Of a stretch of DNA of 64,000 nucleotides, positions 4,178 through 60,956 are shown piece after piece. Position numbers and translations under genes: made by a program. The notes beneath the pieces were generated by a model. It did not search any database. It saw nothing but the letters and a program-made list of their open reading frames with translations, and was not told the DNA's origin. The DNA comes from Torpedo marmorata. Lineage: Eukaryota. The stretch is from contig OZ360220.1 in the NCBI GenBank assembly GCA_977017645.1, positions 157,914,001-157,978,000 on the forward strand. Direction: 5' to 3'. How positions within the stretch are numbered: the stretch's first letter is position 1; each line of letters starts with the position of its first letter.

Positions 4178-4570
4178 CGTGAAGACAATAAAAACAAATC
4201 TATCCTAGAATATGAATCATGTCTAAAAGAGTAAAAAGAATAATCTTTTTCTCTAGGATTCAATTTTCTCCAAATACTATTAAATTTAAGTCTTTCATCA
4301 AAGTAAGAACTCTTTTAGCAATTTTAGTTTTAGCAACTGATCTTGATGTTTTATCCATTATTGGATCTAAACAACAATTAAAATCCCCACCAATTAAAAT
4401 ATTCTCATTAGCTTCTGACAAATGCAAAAAAGAGTCTTGAATAAATTGTTCATCATCTGCATTTGGTACATATGTATTCATAAGTTTTCAAAATTCTGAG
4501 TATATCTGGCAATGTATTAAAACATATCTACCTACCACATCTATAACTACAGATTATATTTTAAAAGGTG
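4178..4570 (-). pseudogene. L1 ORF2 APE endonuclease fragment (inverted segment)
   Basis: Minus strand reads DVVGRYV, NTYVPN, ILIGGDFN and, after a frameshift, WRKLNPREKDYSFYS..HDSYSRID. Confidence 0.9.
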
Positions 4571-6664
4571 TTTTTATTAAAAATAGATATTCAAAGGATA
4601 ATATAGCTAGATTAATTAGTTTAATTAATGTGCATAAAAAGAAGGATGATTTAGCATTAGTATTAACGTTAGATGCTGAAAAGGCTTTTGATAGATTAGA
4701 GAGGAATTTTTTATTTAAGGTATTGGAGAAATTTGGTTTTGGAACTACATTTATTAACTGGATTAAAACTATATATAAAGAACCATCTGCTAAAGTGGTT
4801 ACAAATGGACAAATTTCTTCAAGATTCCCTCTGACTAGGTCAACTAGACAAGGATGCCCTTTGTCACCAGCATTGTTTACTTTAGCGATAGAACCTTTGG
4901 CAGAATTAGTTAGACAAGATGTTAAGATTGTAGGTATTAAAGTTGGAAGGGAAGAATATAAAATTAGTTTATTTGCAGATGATGTATTGATATACATGAC
5001 AAAACCTATTACTTCTTTAGTACAATTGACTGCTTTATTGAGAGAATATGGGGAAATATCTGGTTATAAGATTAATTCTGATAAAAGTGAAATTATGGCA
5101 TTAACGCAAGGGGATTATAGTAAATGTAAAGAAATTACACAATTTAAATGGTCAAAAGAAGGAATTAAATAGTTGGGAATAAAGATTGATACAAAATTAG
5201 TTAATTTGTATAAATTAAATTATTTACCATTGTTTATGAAAATTAAAAAAGATTTAGAGAGTTGGAAGGATTTACCTATAACTTTAATGGGAAGAGTAAA
5301 TTGTATTAAAATGAATGTTTTTCCTAGAATTCAATATCTCTTTCAATCAATTCCTTATGAAATTCCTCAAAACATTTTTAAAGATCTAAATTCAATTATT
5401 AGGAAGTTTTTGTGGAAAGGAAAGTTGGCAAGAGTAGGTATAGAGAAATTAACGGAACTATGAAATGGGTGGTTTACAACTTCCTAACTTTCAAAATTAT
5501 TATAAAGCAGCTCAATTAAAATTTGTTAATAAACTTTTTGATTTAACTAAATCTTCCGCCTGGATTAGAATAGAATTAAATAATATAGGAGAAGATTCCA
5601 AAGAAGAAGTTATTTATAAATGGAATTCTAAATTAATATCGACAAGAAGGAAAAACTCTCCTATCTTTAAACATTTGATAGAAATATGGAACAAGACGGA
5701 TAAGGAAATAGGAGGAAAAGGATAGATTTCTCCAAAAATGCCTCTATATCAAAATGAACTTATTCCATTTACTGTTAATAATCAATTATTTAAAATTTGG
5801 TTTCAAAAAGGAATTAAGAAAATAAATGATTGTTTTGAAGCTGGTAAATTTATTACTTTTCAAAGAATAAAAGATAAATTTAATATATTGGATAATACAC
5901 TTTTTGCTTATTACCAAATTAGAGCATTTTTGGTTGGGAAATTAGGTTATAGCTTGACTTTACCAAGACAGAATGAATTAGAATTATTAGTTACTAAGGG
6001 AGATGTAAATAAATTTATTTCTCAAATGTATAGATTGTTTCAGAGAAAAATTCCTAAAGTAGGAATTCATAAATCAAGATTAAAGTGGGAATTAGATTTG
6101 AATGTAACAATAGATGAAGATCATTGGAAAGAATTATGTAAACTAAGTATGACGAAGATTATTAATGTTAGATATAGACTAGTACAATATAATTTTTTTC
6201 ATCAATTATATTTAACACCTAAAAAGTTAAAGAAATTCAATGCGACATTATCAGGTTTATGTTTTAGATGTAATAGAGAGGAAGGTTCTTTTGTACATTC
6301 TACATGGTTTTGTCCAAAAGTTTATGATTTTTGGTTGAAAGTTAAAAAGTTTTTAGACAAAGTATTAAAAATTACATTCCCAATGGACCCTATGATATTT
6401 CTGTTTGGAGATATTAAAAAAGTTAGTATTAAGATGAAATTAAATATGTATCAAATAGAATTTTTGCGAATTGCTTTAGCTGTTTCAAAGAAATGTATTG
6501 CTATTACTTGGAAATCTGATGTAGATTTAGGGTTAGAAAGATGGCATGCAGAACTTCGTTCATGTATACCACTTGAAAAAATTACTTACAATTTACGTAA
6601 TAAATACCATTTCTTTTTGAAATATGGAGCCCATATATTGAAGGTTGTTGGTTTAAGGATTTGA
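4571..6664 (+). pseudogene. L1 ORF2 reverse transcriptase and C-terminal domain, interrupted by stops and a frameshift
   Basis: LDAEKAFDR, TRQGCPLSP, LFADD, and C-terminal CFRC..EGSFVHSTWFCPKV, split over four ORFs. Confidence 0.93.
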
Positions 6665-20495: not shown

Positions 20496-21445
20496 TAGAC
20501 AATAGACAATAGGAGCTGGATTAGGCCCGTCGAGCCAGCACCGCCATTTTACAGATCATGGCTAATCACTACTATCAGTACCCCTTTCCAGCCTTATCCC
20601 CATAACCCTTAACTCCTCTGCCCACTAGAGTCTTATCTAACTCTCTTTTGAACATAATCAGCGAATCTTCCTCTACCACCCTCTGTGGCAGAACATTCCA
20701 CAGATTCACACTTCTCTGGGTAAAAAAATTTTTCCTCATCTCCGTCCTAAAGGGCCTTCCCTGTATTCTTAAACTATGCCCTCTAGTCCTCGTCTCTCCC
20801 ATCATTGGGAACAAGTAATCCGACTTCACCCTGTCTATCCCCTTGATAATCTTGTATACCTCAACCATGTCCCCCCTCATCCTTCTAAACTCCATCGGAT
20901 ATAAGTCCAGTTTTTCTAACCTTTCAGCATATGTCAATCCTACCATCCCTGGAACTAACCTTGTAAATCTGCGCTGCACACCCTCTATAGCTAGTATGTC
21001 CTTCCTCAAATTTGGGGACCAGAACTGGACGCAATACTCCAGGTGAGGTCTCACCAGGGCCCTGTACAACTGCAGAAGGGCGTCTCTGCTCCTATACTCC
21101 AATCCCCTCTTTATGAAAGCCAACATGCCATTTGCCTTCTTCACAGCTTTCTGAACCTGCATGTTAGCCTTCAGTGACTGGTGTACAAGTACACCCAGAT
21201 CCATTTGCACTTCCCCACTCCCTAGCTTGTCTCCATTTAAATAATACTCAGCTTTCCTATTACTGCCCCCAAAATGGATAACCTCACATTTGCTCACATT
21301 GAACTTCATCTTCCATTCTTCAGCCCACTCCCCCAACCTGTCCAAGTCCCTCTGCATTTTCCTGACATCCTCCTCACACTTTACACTGCCACCCAGTTTA
21401 GTGTCGTCTGCAAATTTGCTCATGTTATTAATAATCCCTTCATCC
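20496..21445 (-). mobile_element. Well-preserved CR1 LINE, 5'-truncated, RT C-terminal frame open
   Basis: SKFADDTKLGG, WKMKFNVSKC, LYRALVRPHLEYCVQFWSP, TRGHSL; tail (ATTGTCT)n. The ORF N-terminus beyond about 21445 is flanking DNA. Confidence 0.93.
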
Positions 21446-22029
21446 AACTTGGCCCTAGTCATTATTTCTAAGACTTCCTTGTGGGAGCTTGCTGTGTGCC
21501 AATTGGTAGCATTGTAACAGGCAGTGCGCTTCAAAAGCAATGAAGAGAGAAGTTCTGAAAAGGACATGCTGCATAAATGGAAATCTTCCTTTCCCAAATT
21601 TTATTCTGGTTTCTGCCACCTTCCTACATGTTACTGACCCATCGCTGTGCATATTGGGACGTTATTGGGTACATCTTAAACCCTGTATTCACCTAAATGT
21701 TTACACATTGATATGATTGAGGGAAGATGTGGAAACTTTTGAAATTGGGAGGCCAGGGGTCGAAATTAAGATTGGTATGCCCCTCACAAGACAGTGGTTC
21801 TCTGGCATAGTTTCCCATCCACCCCCACTGCTCTCCACAATCCTACCACCCCTGTGACCCTCTCCTCATGGTGCAGTCCTGCCACAAGCTTTGAGGAAGG
21901 AGCAGGAGCTTGACTGGTTCATTTATATCATTGTCATTTAAAACGCCTTCAAGGGTATTCACAAAGTGGAGGGCTGACCCAAAAACCAATTTAAGAAGAG
22001 TTCCATTCAGTCCAGCTCTACTTCACAGC

Positions 22030-23358
22030 TAGTCCATCTCTAGCAACTCTCCTATTTTTCGATCTCTCTGTCTCCATCTCAGGAGACAAACCCTCGACAG
22101 ACATCATCTACAAACCCACCAACTCCCAAAGCTACCTTGACTACACTTCTTCACACCCTGTCTCCTGTAAGGATTCCATTCCTTCCTCTCAATTCTGTCT
22201 CCATCATATTTGCTTCCAGGACGTCTTCCATGCCAGATCATCCGAGATGTCCTCCTTCAAAAAACGTGGCTTCCCTTCTACCACCATCAACTCGGCCCTT
22301 ACCTGCATATCCTCCATTACCCACGCATCTGCCCTGGCCCCCTCCACACGCAACAAGGAAAGGATTCCCCTTGTCCTCACCTACCACCCCACCAGCCTCC
22401 GCATCCAATGTATCATCCTCTGCCATTTCCGCCACCTATTACGTGATCCCACCACCAGACACATCTTCCATTCTCCCCTCTCCACCTGTCGCAGGGACTG
22501 CTCCATCCATGGCTCCCTCGTCCACTCCTCCCTTCCCACCAATCACCCCCTCGGCACCTACCCCTGTGACCGCAGAAAGTGCTCCACTTGCTTCTACACC
22601 TTCTCCCTCATCACCATTTGGGGCCCCAAACAGTCCTTCCAAGTGAAGTAAAACTTCACTTGTGAATCTGCAGGGGTCATTTCCTGCATCCGGTGCTCCC
22701 GTTGTGTTCTCCTCTACGTCGGAGAGACTGGACGCAGACTGGGAGATCGCTTCGTTGAGCACCTTGGCGCTGTCCGCCGCAATAGCGTGGATCTCCCAGT
22801 GGCCACCCGTTTCAATTCCCCGCCCCATTCCCTTGCCAACATGTCTGTCCATAATCTCATGTACTGCTAGACTGAGACCATTCGCAAATTGGAGGAACAA
22901 CACCTCATCTTCCGTCTGGGCACCCTCAACCAGATGGCATTAACATCAACTTCTCCGGTTTCCGTTACCCCTGCCTATCTATCCCTATGTCTCCTTTCCT
23001 CTAGCTCTGTCTCTCTTCTCTTTTACCTTTGTCTCCTTTACCCCTGCTCTACATTCACAGAGCCAACCTTCCCTTCCCCCAATCAATTTTCACCTTTCCT
23101 CTCCTGACCTCCTATCAATATCCAATTAACACCTTTTGTCTGTAGGTCTGTGCTCCTCCCCCTGCCCTTTCTTTCCTTCTCCCCAGCCTTTTAATTCAGG
23201 TGCCTGAATGCTTTTTTCTCATACCTTGAAGAAGGGCTCAGGCCCAAATCGTCAGTTATATATCTTTACCTCCTATAGACACTGCAAAACTTGCTGAGTT
23301 CCTCTAGCATTTCTGTGTTTTTACTACAATCACAGCGTCTGCAGACTTCCGTGTTTCA
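22030..23358 (+). mobile_element. Penelope-like element (RT thumb and GIY-YIG endonuclease), truncated
   Basis: YKPTNSQSYLDYTSSHP, IPLVLTYHP, TYPCDRRKCSTC, CIRCSRCVLLYVGETGRRLGDRFVEH; pyrimidine-rich 3' region with a degenerate hammerhead-like motif. Confidence 0.9.
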
Positions 23359-36380: not shown

Positions 36381-36558
36381 CAGCATAACTTGGCTGTCAG
36401 ATATTGAATTTTTGTAATTGTCTAGTTAATGAACAAGTCAGTCTAATCCATTACCTTTAGGTAAATACAAGCCATTGTAAGCCTTCCAAAACCCAAATTC
36501 CACTGATAATGCTGCACTTTATGAATGCACGTTACATTTTTGTTGCATATCTTTGCAG

Positions 36559-37896
36559 TGGAAAGGAGTGGCACCTTCAGAGAAGAGCAAAGCTGTGTCA
36601 ACGGGGCTGCATCATACCCTGCCTCATCCCAAGCTTCGGAATGCAGGCCAGGATGACATGGCTCTGGGTGTGAAGTCCATCATCAGTTCATCACCTGGAA
36701 GCATTCACTTTGGAAGTTTCTTCACGGTGATTGACGCAGAATCTTCGAACAGAGACACATCGTTACCCACCTCTGATGCTCCAGCGAGCGGCTCAGGAAA
36801 CATCACAATCCCACGGCCTCAAGGCAGGAAGTCTACAGAGAAGGGAATCAGGCTCCCCCCTCCGGTGGCTGTCTCTCGAGGAGTCAAACAACAGGCTTTT
36901 CCTGGGCTTGATCAAGTCTCGAGCGCATTGCAGGATAGCTCCAAACAAGATGCGTCTGGGTCCAGTGCTAGTGCAGTGCCCAATAGGTTACAGGAGCCCA
37001 CTGGTGCTGAGAAGAAACCCCCAATGTCAGACTTAAAATCATCATTGAATCTGAACACACAGTCTCCATTAAGTTCATGTCCCACTGATATTCTGAAACC
37101 TATCAAAATCAGCAAGGGAGTAGATAGCAGGAATGATCTGCTGAGTCTCTTGGATCCACTTAGTGCCCGTTCTGACCTTGACAGGCACCCATCTCCAGGT
37201 CTCAATGCCTCACTAGCATCTGCATTATCTCTTCCTGCAGCTCCCTTGGCTTTCGCTGCATCGGGAACTGATGTCAGAGTGAGTACTCCACCAGCTTCCT
37301 TACATTTCAGCCAGACCCTGGGGTTCTCAGCCCCTAGCCCGGCACCACTGGCGCATTTTCCCCAACCGCCGCCCTATGTGTATTCCCAAGCCATGCCGGT
37401 GGCTCTCCGTTTCCCTCAGCCTCAACCCCCCGCCACTCACTTTGCTTCTTCTGCAGCTCCTGCTTTGGTTCCGAAATTCTTGCCTTCGGCCCCGAGCTTC
37501 TTCAAGCCACAAATGCCCCACAGGAACTATTCAGCTCCTTCCCTGCATCACATGTACACTGCACCCAAGGCTCTGCCTCAGTCAGGGACGTTTAGTAAGG
37601 AAAGTACAATCTCCTCGACAAGCCTGGGTGGAATAAACTACACAAAAGCAGCTGGGAAAACCAGTGTAAGTGTAGCTGAGTCCAATTCAACTGGAGCCAG
37701 TGCAGGAAAAAAATTAGCTGAGCCACCACTGGTTCCACCAAAGCCTTCCAAAGGTCTTGAGCGAATTTCACAGCCATCCGATTCTGGAAAATCTGAAGAT
37801 CCATTTGCAGTCATGCTTAGCGCTACAAAGAAGGAAGCAGCAACATCACAAAGCAGAGTGGACCAGCTCAGGAAGAAGTGGGAGACTTTTGAATAA
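36559..37896 (+). CDS. DENND1A: DENND1A (connecdenn 1, Rab35 GEF) terminal coding exon, Pro/Ser-rich tail
   Basis: ctttgcag acceptor, phase 0. GQDDMA, GNITIPRPQGRK, LLSLLDPLS, PPLVPPKP, EDPF and C-terminal QLRKKWETFE match DENND1A. Convergent with CRB2 as in human. Confidence 0.96.
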   Translation, partial: WKGVAPSEKSKAVSTGLHHTLPHPKLRNAGQDDMALGVKSIISSSPGSIHFGSFFTVIDAESSNRDTSLPTSDAPASGSGNITIPRPQGRKSTEKGIRLPPPVAVSRGVKQQAFPGLDQVSSALQDSSKQDASGSSASAVPNRLQEPTGAEKKPPMSDLKSSLNLNTQSPLSSCPTDILKPIKISKGVDSRNDLLSLLDPLSARSDLDRHPSPGLNASLASALSLPAAPLAFAASGTDVRVSTPPASLHFSQTLGFSAPSPAPLAHFPQPPPYVYSQAMPVALRFPQPQPPATHFASSAAPALVPKFLPSAPSFFKPQMPHRNYSAPSLHHMYTAPKALPQSGTFSKESTISSTSLGGINYTKAAGKTSVSVAESNSTGASAGKKLAEPPLVPPKPSKGLERISQPSDSGKSEDPFAVMLSATKKEAATSQSRVDQLRKKWETFE

Positions 37897-46335: not shown

Positions 46336-46446
46336 TATTTAGAAATAACTGAAAACACTAAATAAAATAACTTTTAAAATTACTTTTTACCCTTTTCCTT
46401 AGTCCTGCAATCCCCACTGACCACATTAGAATGGGTACAAGGTACT

Positions 46447-47842
46447 CATCTCTTCCTCCGTTATATCGACAACTACATCGGGGCTGCCTCATGCACCCGC
46501 GATGAGCTTGTCAACTTCATCCACTTCGCAACCAACTTCCACCACGATCTCAAACTCACCTGGTCCATCTCCGATACACTCTCCCCTTCCTGGATCTCTC
46601 TGTCTCCATCTCAGGAGACAAGCTTTCCACCGACATTTACTACAAACCCTCCAACTCCCACAACTATCTGGACTACACATCCTCACACCCTGTCCCCTGC
46701 AAGGATTCCATCCCCTTCTCTTAATTTCTCCGCCTCTGCCGCATCTGTTCCCAAGATGAGGTGTTCCAGTCCAGATCTTCTGAAATGTCTGCTTTTTTCC
46801 ACAAACGTGGCTTCCCCTCCACCACCATAAACTCAGCCCTCACCCGCATCTCCTCCATTTCCCGCTCATCTGCCCTGGCCCCCTCTGCCCCCAGACGCAA
46901 CAAACATAGAATCCCCCTCATCCTCACCTACCACCCCGCCAGCCTCCGCATCCAACACATTATCTGCCGGAATTTCCGGCACTTACTACAGGATCCCACC
47001 ACCAGACACATTTTTCCTTCTCCCCTCTCGGCCTTCCGTAGGGACTGCTCCCTCCGCAATTCACTCGTGCACTCATCCCTCCCCACCCATCGCACCCCCG
47101 GCACCTTCCCCTGTGCCCGCAGGAGGTGCAACACCTGCGCCCACACCTCCCCCCTCACCACGGTCCAGGGCCCCAAACAGGCCTTCCAAGTGAAACTACA
47201 CTTCACTTGTACATCCAGATAACTTATTTACTGCATCTGGTGCTCCCTTTGTGGCTTTCTCTACATCAGAGAGACCGGTCGTAGATTGGGAGACCGCTTT
47301 GCTGAGCACCTCCTCTCCGTCCGAAACAGCGACCTCCCAGTAGCCAACCATTTCAATTCCGGGTCACACTCCCACACTCACATGTCTGTCCATGGCCTTA
47401 TGTACTATCCCACCCAGACTACCCGCAAATTGGAGGAACAACATCTTATTTTCCGTCTGGGCACTCTCCAGCCAGGTGGCATTAACATTGACTTTTCTGC
47501 TTTCCACTAAACCTGCTTATTGTTCCCTTCCCCTCCCCCCTCACCTGTCCTTCCTGTTTTTCTCCACCTACCCAGCCATCCCTCCTCCCCCTCTTTGCTG
47601 CTGTCCCCTCCCTCCTTTCTCCACCTATCATCTCCTGCCTTTGCCAACCCCTTCCCCCTCACTCTTTTGTTCGGACGCCTGCCGACATTTTCTCATACTT
47701 TGATGAAGGGCTCAAGCCCGAAATGTCGGTTATGTATTTCTACCTTTGCTACATAAAAGACACTGTTTGACCTGCTGAGTTTCTCCAGCATTTGTGTTTT
47801 TTACTTCAACCACGGTGTCTACAGATTTTCGTGTTTTACGTT
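46447..47842 (+). mobile_element. Penelope-like element (RT to GIY-YIG), 5'-truncated, with 15-bp TSD
   Basis: TSD tgggtacaaggtact at 46432-46446 and 47843-47857. FLRYIDNYIG (RT motif C), YKPSNSHNYLDYTSSHP, TFPCARRRCNTC, LIYCIWCSLCGFLYIRETGRRLGDRFAEH; hammerhead-like motif near 47700-47728. Confidence 0.93.
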
Positions 47843-50800: not shown

Positions 50801-52519
50801 CCAGTACATCACTCTTGTTAATGGCATTCTCTGCAGAATAACCTCTAATGTCCTTTCCAATGTCAACGTGTCCTCATTAATTCATGTGTGTTTTGGTCAT
50901 CAGATGACCTGGTCTCCCTGTTTGATGTGAATATTTAAAGATTTGCATGGAGAACACAATTGAAATGTCAGGGGTACAAATCTTCCCAGTGTGTTTATTG
51001 ATGTTCTACTTTCAAACTGTTGCCTTCACTGTAACCACTTTGTAACCAATGGGGAGCATAAGTTTGGGGATGTGTTGGGATTTTAATACTCGACCAGGAA
51101 TTATTCCAGATATTAAACAGGAATTAGGTCCCAATCCCACCAGGACTCACACAACCTGCCCCCACTAACACCTTGACTTGCCCCCAAATAACCAATCCCC
51201 TGAGCACCTGACAAGTAGGGACAGGGTTGTCAATCTGAGTATAACTGACCCCAGCCTTCCAACCAGTGCCCTCCCCATCATCCCAAGATGGTAAAAGGAG
51301 ACTCAAGAGGCTAAAGGTACTGATATCTGGATTAAAAAATAAACTCAGCAGGTCCAACAGGGTCTTGACCTGAAATGTCAATTATCAACCTGCCTCCACA
51401 GAGGCTGTTTGACCCACTGAGTTCTCCAGCAGTTTACTTCCACCCATCCCTCTTCAGATTACTAAGACTGATCCTTCAACAAGCTGATCTTTGAAACAAG
51501 CTGATGTTTCAAGTCGGAATCTTCAGGTTGGGTGCAGAGAGGCAAGTGGAATTGTTGGAGGTGATGCAGGCAGCAGTGAGGTTGATGATCTCAGGTGGTG
51601 AGAACAATTGCCCTGCAGTCTGCAAACTTATCCTGATCAGTGAATACACCACACTGGCTCAAAACATTGCTCACATGCCTGACACACAGTCTGTGAGACA
51701 CCTCTTCCTGAGCCAACAATCTGGGGATGATTTTCTCCCAATCATTCAGCATAATTTTCTTTCAACAACATCTTCCCCTGCCCCCCTTAAGAAGTGGGAT
51801 ATTTACCATGATTGGAAACATACATTCAGCTTGATTGGAAATATGGATCAAAAGTTTAATTGGGAGACAAATGATGATAGGTCCCAAGCAGAAATATGTA
51901 TATTCTTTTTATGACTAATTAAATATCATCCTTGAAAATTGTAGAATTTACATTAACTCTAAATGTAATTTTATGGAGACGGGATAGACATTAGTTTTCC
52001 CAGGAGAACTCCAAGGATGAGAAAGGTTAGAGGAGAGAGGTGAGGAGAGACATCATGGAAATGTGGTGTTGGAGGAGGTGCCTCAACTTGTTGTGGGCAG
52101 GAAGGAGAACCAAGCCTTCGGTCTTGAAGCTGAATTGTTCTCTCGAGGTTCCCGTGATTAGGCAGAAACTGCCATATTTAGGGAAGTGACATGGGCTGGC
52201 AGAGGGAGAGATGGTCAGGCAGATAGAGCAGAGTGAGACAGTGAAGAGATGGGTGATTTCCTGCAACAGCACTGGGGCACAGCTGCTGATGCATCATCTT
52301 GGAAGAAGTTGGTTCAGCAGCCACCAGAAGTTGACTCCAACCTGTCTGGCTGAACATTGAAGCAGTGTTGCCCCACACTGTATTCCTTGTTTTTTCTTGT
52401 CTTAGATTCAACGTCAAGAGCTCCAGAATATTGGTTCCCTACCTGACACTAAAGTTGAAATTGACACAATTGAGTTTGAGTGCCAGAACTCTTGTCTTCT
52501 CCAAACTGAGCAACAAGAA

Positions 52520-52710
52520 AAACACAAAAACTGCAGATGCTGGAATCTAGAGTGAACAAGGAGAAGCTTATGGGACTCAGTGGGTCAGGCAGCATCTGGG
52601 GAGAGAAATGCCTTGAGAAAGAGTCCTGACCCGAAACATTGACTGACTATTTCTCTCCATGGATGCTCCTGACCTGCTGAGTCCCTCCAGCTTCTCCTGT
52701 TCACTCTACT
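52520..52710. mobile_element. Penelope-derived inverted pair
   Basis: agagtgaacaaggagaagct ... agcttctcctgttcactct arms around a degenerate core. Confidence 0.75.
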
Positions 52711-53246
52711 GAACAATGACTGTTGTATAAGATTATCCAGCTCTCGTGTTCAGGCTAATTCCATTATTTAGGAATGATGTTGAAAATCTGTTTGCCATTT
52801 ATGACTCAAGTGTTACACCATGGAGATTCAACTTTAACAATGTGGAACCAAAAATCTTGCAGAACCGTAACTGCTGTGAAAATAACCAACCAGAGAATGT
52901 AAAAATGACACAGCTAGAATGCTGATGACGTCAGACGGAATTAGTGAAATCTATGCCACATGACAATCAATGACAGAGGAGCTGGAGTTATTTTGAAAGT
53001 TCTTGGAACTTTATAAGAGCATCCTCAAAAGAACTTGTTTACAATTACGTCATGGATGGCATTTTTAAGCACGTTGAATCTGAACATTTTCCTGATTAAT
53101 CCATTTCCAAACATGGTCAACTTCAATCATTAAAAACTGAGCCACACTCGATTTAGCTATAACTGGGCTGAATTACTCTGTCCACAGCGCAGCCGTGGAC
53201 AGTCTACAACTGCCATTGCCCTGTTTCCCAAAGATGATCCACGTCT

Positions 53247-53363
53247 CTACTCTTGCTCCATCTTTCTCCTCAGGACGCACACCAGGATTATGATGATTCC
53301 TCCAACTGCACCCACACAGCCAGCAATAACCAGAGTATCTTTTCTCTGCAAAGTTCCTCTCTG
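53247..53363 (-). CDS. Candidate alternative CRB2 terminal exon: (Q)RGTLQRKDTLVIAGCVGAVGGIIIILVCVLRRKMEQE*
   Basis: Branch-like cttaat, CAGCAG acceptor, phase 0 like the canonical exon, 21-aa hydrophobic stretch followed by RRK and TAG. No transcript evidence. Confidence 0.55.
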   Translation of the reverse strand, partial: QRGTLQRKDTLVIAGCVGAVGGIIIILVCVLRRKMEQE

Positions 53364-54305
53364 CTGTGGAACAGTTGCCATTAAGTGGTCGTGAGAAATG
53401 TACAGTTCATTGTCCTTGTTCTACAATGTTTATCTGGGCTCCTGCGATGAATCCCTCAGCCTGAGGTTATCTGCCAGTATTTTTTTCCATCCAACAACAG
53501 TTTGTAAATAGAATGGGCAAGAATACAGTCTGTCAGTAACAACTGTTGGTGCAACAACATAAGTGCTTTCAAGCTGGGTACAGACTTGTTCACAGTGAAC
53601 ACGCCTTTAATTAGACGTTGAAACAGAAGACAATGATCCCATGACTTCTACCGTTTGCATCACCTAATGTTAACGTTGAAGCTCTCCCGGTAAGACATAT
53701 AAATAGTTCCCTCTGTTAACACGTGGCACAGATTTGTTTCACTCTATAATCAACAAGTTTCAAAGCGACAAAGACTTTTCTATTAAAAAGTGGTTCAATT
53801 AAGAATCAAATTACAGTAAAAGTTTAAATAAATGAAAACAACACATCCTCCATTAAGTTCAATCAGATCACGGGACAGCCTGAAAAGCTTTGTTGGGGAA
53901 GTCCCACCTGTTGATGAAGGGTTGGGGTAACTGGAGCCCCAGGGCAATGGGCTTTGAGGTGGGAATGATCTCTGCAGAGGTGAGACTGTGCTGTACAATT
54001 CATTATATGTACAGGGATGCTCAAATCAATCTTTGACTTCATACACCATTCAATGAGCAGCACAGTGTGAACTTCCTCACTCAATGTGTTTTTAGCTGCA
54101 GTTGCTGTGAGAATAATGCAGTGCCAACATAAATCGGGATGCATCAACCTCTTGGTGAAGCAGATGTCTGGAATGGGAGGATTATTTTCAGCAGAATCAG
54201 CAGACGAAGGCAAGCATTGCAGCTGGGGAAATGCCCGTTGTGTTGTCGGATACGAGGCCACTCAAAACAAGAGCATCCCATCACCTTATGAGTTCAATGG
54301 ACCAA

Positions 54306-54527
54306 TTATATCAAGCGCTCTTCGGGTGGGACTTTAAGGACACTGTCCATCTCCAGCCGGGCCCCGGCCACTTCCTGTTGGCTTGGGTTGTATGTCCCTT
54401 CTGTCTGACGCTTCTTACGTGCAGTAAGGACCACAAAAATAAGAGCGATTACAATCAGCAGCACACTCCCACACACCACAGGCACAGCCACTGCCAGGAC
54501 TGGGATAGAGTCCGCCTTCTTCCCTCT
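54306..54527 (-). CDS. CRB2: CRB2 (Crumbs 2) last coding exon: TM helix and cytoplasmic tail
   Basis: Acceptor tcctattatcttcacag. Tail [37 protein letters not shown] is nearly identical to human CRB2 (FERM-binding GTY and PDZ-binding ERLI) and unlike CRB1. No upstream exon found within the window. Confidence 0.96.
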
Positions 54528-56529: not shown

Positions 56530-56764
56530 TGATGAGCCCATCAATAACTTCAAAAGACTAGAAGTTACACAAGAACTGAAAGGCTTTTATTGGCAAAAGA
56601 ATGGAGCTACATTCGTGCTGGTGATCTGTCCCGGACTGGGGGAGGAGCGGTGGCACAATGGCCTTTATTCAGGGGGTCTGTGGGAGGAGCCACCGGGACA
56701 GTCAGCAGAGGGCATGTCCAGACATATCACCCAGCCCACACCCAATACATAGTGGTTTACCACA
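56530..56764 (-). repeat. 3' LTR (235 bp)
   Basis: Direct repeat of 60723-60956; 5 substitutions and 1 indel by eye. Confidence 0.97.
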
Positions 56765-56848
56765 TTCACCCCCTCCTTTTTAAAAGAGTCCAGCGGGGTG
56801 AAGGGTGCAACAATATTTACAAATAATTAAAATTACAAATCGAGTTGA

Positions 56849-59660
56849 TCAGGCGGTCGAGTCCGCCGCTGTGATCGGCGCAGTACTTGTGGTGATGGGG
56901 CAGGTGGCGGTGCTGCCTCCTGCCTGATTTGGGGTACCAGCACGTCTGGCGTTCGCAAAACCTCGGGTGAACACGTTTGGTGTCATGTTTGAATTGGGTG
57001 GTGCCTCTTGTGTGTCCTTAATGGTAGGTACGGGGGTAACAGTAACTACGGAGTGTTCGAGGGCGGCAACGGCGGGTCCCAGTGCTCCTGCGGGCGCCAG
57101 GTCCCGGATGGAGACCGTGTCTTCCCGCCCATCAGGAAAAACCACGTAGGCGTACTGGGGGTTCGCGAGTAATAATTGGACCCTCTCGACCATCGGGGCG
57201 TATTTATTGCTCCTGACATGTTTCTGGAGCAGCACTGGCCCTGAGGACGTCAGCCATGCTGGTAGGGTAGTCCCGGTGGTCGACTTCCTGGGGAAGGAAA
57301 AGAGTCTCTCATGAGGTGCAGCATTGGTGGATGTGCATAGCAGGGATCGGATGGAGTGGAGTGCCTCGGGAAGGACTTCTTGCCAGCGGGAGACTGGTAA
57401 TCCCTTAGACCTGAGGGCTAAGAGTGTGGCCTTCCAGACCATGGCGTTCTCCCTCTCCACTTGTCCATTACCCCGTGGGTTATAGCTCGTGGTCCTGCTA
57501 GTCGCGATACCCTTGGCCAGCAGGTATTGTCGCAGCTCGTCACTCATAAACGAGGACCCTCGGTCGCTATGGATATAGCAGGGGTATCCAAACAACGTGA
57601 AGAGTTTGCGGAGGGCTTTTATGACTGAGGTGGTAGTGGTATCGGGGCAGGGAATGGCGAAAGGGAACCGCGAGTACTCATCAATGACGTTGAGGAAGTA
57701 CATATTGTTGTTGGTGGAGGGAAGGGGGCCCTTAAAGTCGACGCTTAGTCACTCAAATGGGCGGGTTGCTTTTATCAACTGTGCCTTGTCAGGACAGTAG
57801 AAGTGCGGTTTGCACTCTGCGCAGACTTGGCAGCTGCCGGTCATCGTCCTGACCTCCTCCAGGGAGTACGGCAGGTTACGGGCTTTCACAAAGTGAGAAT
57901 GCCTGGTGACTCCGGGGTGGCAGAAGTCACAGTGGAGGGCATATAACCGGTCGATCTGTGCGCTAGCGCACGTCCCCCGGGATAAAGCATCAGAGGGCTC
58001 ATTGAGCTTCCCAGGCCGGTACATTATATCATAGTTGTAGGTGGAGAGTTCGATTCTCCACCTCAGGATTTTATCATTTTTGATTTTACCCCGCTGCTGG
58101 TTGCTGAACATGAATGCGACTGAGCGTTGGTCAGTCAGCAGGGTAAACCTTTTGCCGGCGAGATAGTGCCTCCAGTGCCGGATAGCTTCCACTATGGCTT
58201 GGACCTCTTTCTCCACCGCTGAGTGCCGAATTTCTGGGCCTTGAAGGGTACGGGAGAAGAACGCCACCGGTCTTCCCGCCTGGTTGAGGGTAGCAGCCAG
58301 TGCAAAGTTGGATGCGTCAGTCTCTACTTGAAAGGGAGTGGACTCGTCCACCGCGTGCATTGCTGCTCTGGCAATGTCCCCTTTTATGAGGCAGAAAGCC
58401 TCACGTGCCTCCGCTGCAAGGGGAAAAGTGGTGGACTTGACTAGGGGGCGGGCCTTGTCCGCATAATTAGGAACCCATTGAGCATAGTAAGAAAAGAAGC
58501 CCAAGCACCTTTTGAGGGCTCTGAGGGTGTGGGGAAGCGGTAGTTCCAACAGGGGGCACATGCGTTCAGGGTCGGGGCCGATGACCCCATTCTCCACAAC
58601 ACACCCCAGGATAGCGAGCCGGGTGGTTCCGAACACGCACTTATCCTTGTTATAGGTGAGGTTAAGTGCTTAGGCCGCCTGGAGGAACTTCCGAAGATTG
58701 TTATCGTGGACCTGCCGGTCGTGACCGCAGATAGTGATGTTATCTAGGTATGGAAAAGTGGCCTTTAATTTGCATTGGTCCACCATCTTGTCCATCTCCC
58801 TCTGGAAGACGGTTACCCCATTTGTGTCCCCAAAGGGGACGCGCAGAAAATGATAGAATCTGCCGTCCACCTCGAAGGCGGTGTAGGGGCAGTCCTCCTG
58901 GCGAATGGGGAGCTGGTGGTAGGCAGATTTGAGGTCTATGGTGGAGAATAGCTTATATTGGGCTATCTGGTTCACCATATCTGCGATGCGTGGTAGAGGG
59001 TATGCGTCAAGCTGTGTGAACCTATTGACGGTCTGGCTATAATCTACCACCATCCTGCTTTTCTCCCTGTTCTTGATGACCACCACCTGGGCCCTCCAGG
59101 GACTCGTGCTCGCCTCGATGATCCCTTCCCCAAGTAATCGCTGCACCTCTGACTTAATGAATGCCCTGTCCCCTGTGCTGTATCTCCTGCTTTTGGTTGC
59201 CACGGGTTTACAATCATGGGTCAGATTGGCGAACAGTGTTGGGGGCGGGATCTTGAGTGTGGATAGACCGCAAGTAGTGTGGTGTGACGAATATTTCTGC
59301 CGTTTTTAAGAAATTGGTGATTACTGACAGTAATTGGTGGGAGGGGCCCGTCATACTCCATAGTCACACTTTGGAGGTGACTCTGGAAGTCGAGGCCCAG
59401 TAGTACAGGTGCACACAGTCGGGGCATGACCAATAGCGTGAAGTCCCGGTTTTCAGTGACCTGCACCACTAGCGTCGCTACACAACCCCCCCGGATGTCT
59501 GTTGTGTGCAACCCTCTGGCTTACCGGCTGTGTCTTGAGGCTGCATCGCTGTACTGTGTCAGGGTGGATGAAGCTCTCTGTGCTGCCTGTGTCGAACAGG
59601 CAGTTTGTTCTGTGTCCCTCGACCAGGATGTCCATCATCGACCTCGCGAGTTGGTGGGGT
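56849..59660 (-). pseudogene. Gypsy pol (protease, RT, RNase H, integrase) with stops and frameshifts
   Basis: LFDTGS; SPW..RMVVDY..DAYPLP..IDLKSAYHQ..PFG..YLDN; VETDAS..PVAFFSRTL..TDQ; HPG..CQVC, VIDEYSRF, IHSDRGSSF, PRGNGQVER. Confidence 0.95.
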
Positions 59661-59989
59661 GCACTCTGATCGAGTGTAACTGACTCCAACGTTGAGTCGC
59701 TGTCTTGATCCGACGTGATGGAGTGCCCGCTGTCCCGGGATGGCGGCACCCTGTGTCGGCGCGATGGCGTGGAACAAAATGGCCGCTCCCATGATTCGCA
59801 CGTGTTGGCCGCAAGTAAGTAAGATGGCGGCGACGGAAGTGACGACACGCAAGATGGCAGCCCCCATACCTCGCACGTGTTGGCCGCGGGTAAGTAAGAT
59901 GACGGCAACAGAAGTGATGACACACAAGATGGCCGCCCCCAAGCCTCACACGCGGCGCTGCTCAATCCCGCTCGCGGTTTAGATCTACA

Positions 59990-60699
59990 GACCTTAGCGA
60001 AATGGCCTTTCTTCCCGCAGCTGGAGCAGGTCGCTTCTCGGGCCGGGCAACGTTATCGGGGGTGCTTTTCAAGTCTGCAGAAGTAGCATTTCTCAGACTC
60101 GCGGCTGACGGCTGCTGTCGTCGATTCACCGGCATGGTGTGGGGTCTGCGGTATCCACGGAGCCTGCGGGAGATCGCGCGCCTGTTTTGCATCAGAGTTC
60201 TGTAGCGCGGCCTCCAGTGTATCGGCCAGTTCGATCGCGGAACGGAAGGTGAGGTCAGCTTGCTCCAGCAGCCGCTGGCGCACATACACTGACTTGGTCC
60301 CCGTAACAAAAGAGTCTCTTACTAGGAGCTCTGCATGTTGTTCGGCCGTCAGTCCCTGGCAGTCGCAGGCCTGCACGAGTGTTTGTAGGGCCCGTACGAA
60401 CTCCACGCTTGACTCCTCGGGCCACTGCTGCCGTGTCTCGCATATACAGTATTAACAGGCCGTATATACTGCCTTTTAAGGGCATTCATAGCGTCTTCAT
60501 AAGTCTGCAGATCTCGGATCATGGAGTAGACTCGTGGGCTTACCCTAGAGAGGAGGACCTTGCATTTTGCGGTGTCTTCTTGTACTTTGATCTCCTCCAG
60601 GAACGACTCAAAACAGGCTAGCCAGAGTTCGAAAGCATTTCCAGCCTCTGGTGTTTGTGGATCGAGGTCCAGTTTGTCTGGTCTCAAGACATTCTCCAT
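59990..60699 (-). pseudogene. Gypsy gag, frameshifted
   Basis: MENVLRPDKLDLDP.., LVRDSFVTG..VRQRLLE, and zinc knuckles CYFC..HPR*RC and CSSCGKKGHFAKVC. Confidence 0.88.
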
Positions 60700-60722
60700 G
60701 CTTACAATTTTGCCAATAAAAT

Positions 60723-60956
60723 TGATGAGCCCATCAATAACTTCAAAAGACTAGAAGTTACACAAGAACTGAAAGGCTTTCATTGGCAAAAGAATGAAGC
60801 TACATTCGTGCTGGTGATCTGTCCCGGACTGGGGGAGGAGCGGTGGCACAATGGCCTTTATTCAGGGGGTCTGTGGGAGGAGCCACCGGGACAGTCAGCA
60901 GGGGCATGTCCAGACCTATCACCCAGCCCACAACCTATACATAGTGGTTTACCACA
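60723..60956 (-). repeat. 5' LTR (234 bp)
   Basis: Direct repeat of 56530-56764; its inner end lies just upstream of the gag ATG at 60699. Confidence 0.97.

Follow-up and report, generated by a model that had tools for sequence, protein, structure and literature searches.

A probable frameshifted relic of a second CRB2 last exon in Torpedo marmorata as a pointer to two alternative Crumbs tails

The stretch of DNA analysed here, referred to as the window, comprises 64,000 nucleotides of the Torpedo marmorata genome (assembly GCA_977017645.1, contig OZ360220.1, positions 157,914,001 to 157,978,000 of the forward strand), and coordinates below are those of the window unless another sequence is named. 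Its minus strand carries the canonical last exon of a Crumbs gene at 54306-54527, with 73 codons and a stop and with both the GTY and ERLI motifs intact. This exon matches cartilaginous-fish CRB2 models at 86-96%, identifying the host gene as CRB2, and the large exons of the gene are 92-93% identical to CRB2 of Narcine bancroftii, the closest among 10 named proteins used for comparison. The last EGF exon of CRB2 lies beyond the window (L003 6802-6673, at locus G000:C2), 26,145 nt 5' of the canonical acceptor, and ends GAT/gtaagt, in phase 0. Within the last CRB2 intron there is a Ty3/Gypsy-like LTR element on the minus strand (56530-60956), with LTRs of 234 and 235 nt, an ACTG target duplication and coding frames broken by stops and shifts, and LINE-like reverse transcriptase fragments were recognised by eye at 4441-6664, 20575-21600, 21995-22651 and 46378-47510. 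Tail to tail with CRB2, on the plus strand, lies the last exon of a DENN-domain gene (36481-37896), which by synteny we take to be DENND1A. A Crb2-Dennd1a-Lhx2 block is given in PMC3100342.

A first-pass annotation had pointed to a possible second CRB2 last exon on the minus strand about 940 nt past the canonical stop, with a phase-0 acceptor, a hydrophobic helix followed by basic residues, and an ATTAAA between the two exons, and all of these features were borne out. The candidate starts 942 nt beyond the canonical stop, and positions 53363-53247 of the minus strand encode QRGTLQRKDTLVIAGCVGAVGGIIIILVCVLRRKMEQE followed by a stop, 38 residues preceded by ccacag/cag/aga and consisting of a linker, a shortened helix and seven out-of-frame residues. 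Its splice phase agrees with the end of the last EGF exon, and the frame from the acceptor through the helix is still open and hydrophobic, with a best 19-residue Kyte-Doolittle mean of 2.86, inside the range of 2.42-3.30 found for eight true Crumbs last exons. The acceptor, a tandem CAG/CAG at 53361-53386 (minus strand), has 11 pyrimidines in 20; the canonical acceptor has 15, and that of an intact twin in a second Crumbs gene of this genome, termed C22, has 14. The ATTAAA, a possible proximal poly(A) signal, is at 53606-53611 on the minus strand. As judged from hydropathy only, the product would carry a single membrane helix and a 7-residue tail without motifs, and an ERLI C-terminus is absent from both the exon frame and the shifted frame.

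The combination of features at the candidate is rare in its surroundings. When 25,823 YAG sites in 928 kb of strand were scanned for a phase-0 frame of 30-80 codons encoding basic residues and a helix at least as hydrophobic as that of the candidate (a threshold taken from the candidate itself), three distinct places were recovered, all of them Crumbs exons: the canonical exon, the candidate and the second exon of C22. The candidate stretch is single-copy in the genome. No Pfam match was found for the candidate peptide, and a homologue search with a 41-residue peptide, which is weak because only cluster representatives were searched, returned two candidates, none at an E-value of 10 or below.

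The identity of the candidate became apparent from shark CRB2 models. The clusters of nine chondrichthyan CRB2 proteins have 46 members, of which two end differently, namely horn shark isoform X2 (P0136) and a white shark model (P0139). This alternative end has 73 residues, comprising a helix and a complete tail, RATQGTY...EKDGARVEMW...PPTERLI. Hereafter we refer to the canonical, proximal last exon as E, with the tail RQTEGTY...LEMD...PPEERLI, and to the distal, second one as Q, with the tail RATQGTY...VEMW...PPTERLI. In a frameshift-tolerant alignment, the candidate is identical to horn shark Q at 24 of 41 residues, with a score of 89 (77 against white shark Q), whereas 561 windows drawn at random from the 264 kb around it gave a mean of 22.3, a standard deviation of 3.6 and a maximum of 39; the score of 34 against an E exon falls inside this null range. 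The first half of the candidate matches residues 2-29 of horn shark Q. Behind the deletion that removed GTY, the second half of the cytoplasmic tail, EKDGARVETWII, is present in a shifted frame (53233-53271, minus strand), with 9 of 11 residues identical to the frog and bird second exons. Of 11,925 open segments scored with a Q profile over 264 kb, the two halves of the candidate come second and third, each half on its own matching weakly (E-values of 0.02 and 2.6 with the profile, and 0.36 genome-wide). The candidate resembles Q beyond chance and more closely than it resembles E, and it lies 3' of E on the same strand with the same phase 0 and a tandem acceptor.

The alignment also describes the damage. 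Where the shark exon has 62 codons (186 nt), the candidate has 125 nt, so that about 61 nt are missing; we infer that about 18 nt of these were lost from the helix and about 43 nt over the basic stretch and GTY. The helix is shortened, the GTY FERM-binding motif that is present in shark and tetrapod orthologues has been deleted, and the codons of the tail end are no longer recognisable. These results speak against the earlier proposal of a tail built without FERM and PDZ motifs, given that the orthologues carry the full GTY...ERLI tail and that RRKMEQE stems from the frameshifting deletion; that proposal had overlooked EKDGARVETW, the second half of the Crumbs tail, in the shifted frame. The RG start noted as common to the two exons does exist, but is incidental, as the horn shark orthologue starts with IG and the likeness to E is at the level of chance. 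We regard the candidate, with a probability of about 0.8, as a frameshifted relic of a full-tail second CRB2 last exon that is now likely confined to the 3' UTR. It is a real exon by descent, though not one built tail-less, and at present likely a pseudo-exon, ordinary in itself.

With the horn shark Q exon as query, 59 proteins among 226 candidates were recovered, from frogs, salamanders, lizards, birds and one further record, and CRB2 gene models with Q exist for amphibians, lizards, crocodilians and birds as well as for sharks. All 61 Q-ending proteins compared are closer to the window CRB2 than to the C22 paralogue, the margin being small for tetrapods. The E- and Q-type CRB2 models of sharks and tetrapods have identical ectodomains, with the last EGF exon joined to either end. 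Six same-species pairs (horn shark, two Xenopus species, axolotl, alligator and Pogona) differ only within their last 71-75 residues, which assigns the two ends to a single gene. Of the cluster members listed, up to 15 for each of the large clusters, Q models account for 2 of 20 in sharks, 7 of 17 in frogs, 2 of 3 in axolotl, 3 of 10 in the Pogona cluster, 2 of 15 in crocodilians and 19 of 30 in birds; none occurs among the 16 ray and skate, 6 chimaera, 51 ray-finned fish, 3 coelacanth, 15 turtle, and 19 monotreme and marsupial members listed, an absence from annotation that does not equate to absence from the genome. These counts leave out five ENA fragments and one JGI fragment (51-56 residues) and three Logan fragments. 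RefSeq already lists Q isoforms, unnamed, and the RefSeq and GenBank Q models are predictions. A glutamine at the junction is present or absent depending on the model, both in axolotl (P0167/P0292) and in birds, which fits the tandem acceptor and suggests that the predicted models have read support. Two records, sparrow P0008 and P0010, chain an E tail into a Q exon, showing the order E then Q, and are probably prediction artefacts.

In the ray genome, the horn shark Q query detected four tail exons, namely the E exon of CRB2, a pair at C22 and a single one at C77. C22 is the second full EGF/LamG Crumbs gene of this genome, a CRB1-like gene with two intact last exons at G000:C22:148232686-148233347 (L024 1471-2132). 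Its E exon (148232686-148232904) has 73 open codons, and its Q exon (148233129-148233344) has 72 open codons behind TCAG/CAG, with GAY in place of GTY. The Q exon begins 221 nt past the E stop, and both the order of the exons and the tandem CAG/CAG acceptor match CRB2. The end of the frame that runs on past the last EGF exon of C22 agrees at 8 of the first 10 residues with the mouse CRB1-B tail, as printed in bioRxiv 10.64898/2026.08.05.743134. DENN genes lie tail to tail with the Crumbs loci at C2, C22 and C77. Judging from its EGF/LamG content, the CRB1-B-like tail and the DENN neighbour, C22 is likely CRB1, and C77 is taken as CRB3. The proximal, CRB2/CRB3-type last exon of C22 is not a CRB1 end described in the literature examined. 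At C77, only an E exon was found in 60 kb, and a Q profile finds no relic there, although a strongly decayed one could escape it.

A tree of 18 last exons over 72 columns, from which the candidate was excluded, separates Q from E with support of 100/99 and groups the exons by position rather than by gene. A duplication restricted to C22, with the two C22 exons placed together, was rejected (p-AU 0.015); the branch of the C22 Q exon is long (3.54). The idea in the first-pass annotation of a duplicated CRB2 last exon holds as far as an alternative last exon with a helix is concerned, but the C22 pair and the tree indicate that the duplication is far older than the ray lineage. The mammalian CRB1-A tail is, we assume, of the Q type. 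In the Crumbs tail of PDB 4WSI, presumably that of Drosophila, the first half appeared Q-like by eye and the second half E-like, a mixture that looks like what is expected of a pre-duplication tail. No description of two full Crumbs tails was found in the literature, where subscription journals, figures and supplements may show alignments.

A third kind of end was also observed. The CRB2 frame that runs on past the last EGF exon (L003 6672-6545, minus strand, at G000:C2) resembles the CRB1-B tail. This B-type run-on has an open frame at C22 and in the chimaera CRB2 model P0156, and contains a TAG within the helix in ray CRB2. From this frame, our reading of the sequence suggests that cartilaginous fishes may make a CRB2-B isoform. 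The tail of the candidate exon is not homologous to that of CRB1-B; it is the EGF-exon run-on that is CRB1-B-like.

For evidence on whether the relic is still used, we compared positions 51500-54290 with contigs from four of seven sequencing runs, none of them recorded as RNA. Of these four, only run X2, which derives from another species (organism B) and is RNA by guess only, covers the candidate. A single 7206-nt contig of this run, at a depth of 90.5 and about 93% identity, spans 51503-54227 on the minus strand, including the ATTAAA and the acceptor, which fits a likely long CRB2 3' UTR containing the relic, with the same proviso that the RNA status is guessed. No joint at the acceptor is present among the joints listed, a listing that leaves aside 12 joints, 20 indels and 411 loose ends, and no second contig adds depth, rare splicing being invisible to a contig. 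The CRB2-side contig of X2 reaches about 4 kb beyond 51503 toward the DENN neighbour. A short interspersed repeat at 52515-52696 attracted most contigs in the other three runs, X1, X5 and X6, whose word shares it likely inflated; X1 and X5 cover little of the region besides this repeat, X6 adds short pieces at 51500-52893, and none of the three reaches the candidate.

The copy in organism B is broken as well. It has 41 extra letters at 53265-53267, just behind the helix, which, read by hand, restore the TYSP segment, with a TGA at the G codon of GTY. With this extra segment the copy is two letters short of the shark frame; this 2-nt shift agrees with the total in the window and may be a shared first lesion in the ray lineage. 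About 16 letters are missing within the bin 53286-53379, which covers the acceptor and helix and has a depth of 75.1 as compared to 90.5. Organism B thus differs in length here, and the short RRKMEQE end has not survived even in so close a species: frame and tail are not conserved in this one relative. Disuse is an inference from these comparisons, and the ray Q relic is likely no longer used.

Several other explanations for the candidate were weighed. A hydrophobic frame arisen by chance in a 3' UTR, or recent copying of the canonical exon, would agree with the missing Pfam match and the failure to find a homologue of the peptide itself, but a score of 89 against a null maximum of 39 makes chance extremely improbable, and 34 against the E type speaks against a recent copy. 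The recent copy was also rejected in a direct comparison, in which canonical exon and candidate gave no blastn match at an E-value below 1. We consider it just as improbable that the species has an intact exon, with the deletion due to misassembly or to a private allele; one assembly is the basis of the sequence, yet the copy in organism B is also broken, and differently, and in the window the helix is shortened and the tail-end codons are unrecognisable. More deserving of attention, though still unlikely, is the possibility that the relic was co-opted, and is spliced to yield a membrane-anchored CRB2 without polarity motifs, similar to CRB1-B and perhaps replacing the B-type run-on, which in ray CRB2 is broken by the TAG in its helix. 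The acceptor, phase, hydrophobic helix and basic stop all survive, and by established knowledge a stop in a last exon would not trigger decay. CRB1-B shows that a Crumbs isoform without the motifs can be abundant (PMC7335077). Against co-option, organism B has a different length here, with about 16 letters fewer in the acceptor and helix bin, and its contig has no acceptor joint among those listed; the C22 twin, which is intact, has a stronger pyrimidine tract, and no database protein ends in the candidate peptide, in a search that was weak and returned two candidates.

A further alternative concerns the history of the pairs rather than the relic. The E/Q pairs might not descend from one ancestral cassette, with Q having reached CRB2, or E having reached CRB1, at a later time by conversion or transposition between paralogues. 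The evidence comes from one CRB1 locus only, C22, where the Q exon is on a long branch, and both points would suit such a transfer. However, the order, short spacing and tandem CAG acceptor are alike at both loci, Q is found on CRB2 in sharks and tetrapods alike, and the B-type run-on is a third feature common to the two loci. We therefore judge a later transfer to be improbable, slightly more so than co-option, and return to the reading of the candidate as the relic of an ancient Q exon.

Given that Q is intact in sharks and tetrapods and has an intact twin at C22, two alternative signalling tails were likely present in vertebrate Crumbs genes before CRB1 and CRB2 diverged, as far as can be judged from sequence comparison. 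The E/Q pair would stem from a tandem duplication of one exon that preceded the genome duplications from which CRB1, CRB2 and CRB3 arose, and the choice between E and Q would be made by acceptor competition coupled to the use of poly(A) sites. In the ray lineage, Q would then have lost selection, with the 2-nt frameshift probably occurring first and separate further lesions following. Any residual use of the acceptor would yield the full ectodomain, the helix and the 7-residue tail as a by-product. A stop codon in the last exon does not trigger decay, and because the stop of the short-tail transcript sits in the last exon, this transcript would escape decay. With moderate confidence, we extend this reading to an ancestral Crumbs gene with three ends in a row (B run-on, E and Q), all inherited by CRB1 and CRB2. 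Mammals would have kept opposite tails (Q on CRB1, E on CRB2 and CRB3), frogs, birds and sharks would still switch tails on CRB2, and in the ray two of the three ends would be decaying. If this is true, the opposite tails kept in mammals imply that the difference between the CRB1 and CRB2 tails goes back to an ancient choice of splicing that became fixed in the two paralogues.

It is customary to regard the CRB1 and CRB2 tails as a single conserved module of 37 residues. If they instead descend from two exons that many vertebrates keep together, there is a reason why selection has maintained the distinction, and CRB2 of chick, Xenopus and axolotl amounts to a natural tail swap on one ectodomain. 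This bears on the substitution of CRB2 for CRB1 in the retina, as well as on how experiments with chick and frog CRB2 are read. The B-like run-on on chimaera CRB2 suggests, in addition, that the motif-less photoreceptor tail predates CRB1. The two-tail layout common to CRB1 and CRB2, or three-end layout when the B run-on is included, is apparently undescribed, and the ray relic matters mainly as a pointer to it.

The closest relatives of the candidate among known isoforms are the alternative-tail CRB2 models XP_067868626.1 (horn shark), XP_041429989.1 (Xenopus laevis), XP_059571715.1 (alligator) and XP_056361423.1 (wheatear), whose alternative last exon is orthologous to the candidate. They agree with it in the linker, the helix, the EKDGARVE-W segment, phase 0 and the tandem acceptor, but in those models the exon is intact, with GTY and ERLI, whereas the ray exon has been shortened and its frame shifted. 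CRB1-B (Ray et al. 2020) is described in PMC7335077 and bioRxiv 10.64898/2026.08.05.743134 as a membrane-anchored isoform whose short tail has neither of the two polarity motifs. It is what the candidate would work like if spliced; the CRB1-B tail, however, matches the run-on of the last EGF exon at C22, while the candidate is a separate downstream exon with an unconserved short tail. CRB3A and CRB3B, with ERLI and CLPI ends from one gene (PMC5380682 and PMC6947654), resemble E and Q in being alternative Crumbs C-termini of a single gene. According to the same reviews, CRB3B arises from splice sites within exon 4 that alter the PDZ end alone, in contrast with E and Q, which are whole duplicated exons for helix and tail, both ending in ERLI. 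CRB2S (Tait et al. 2020) is, according to PMC7108746, a secreted form that stops before the helix by means of exon 9A. As the candidate isoform would be, it is a CRB2 uncoupled from the polarity complex, but it is unrelated to the last exons. In duplication-degeneration-complementation, paralogues partition alternative exons after genome duplication, and the history of E and Q is similar in that one ancestral gene had alternative exons of which the copies keep different ones. E and Q differ in that both paralogues kept both exons in some lineages, with patchy losses, over a span of retention exceeding 400 million years.
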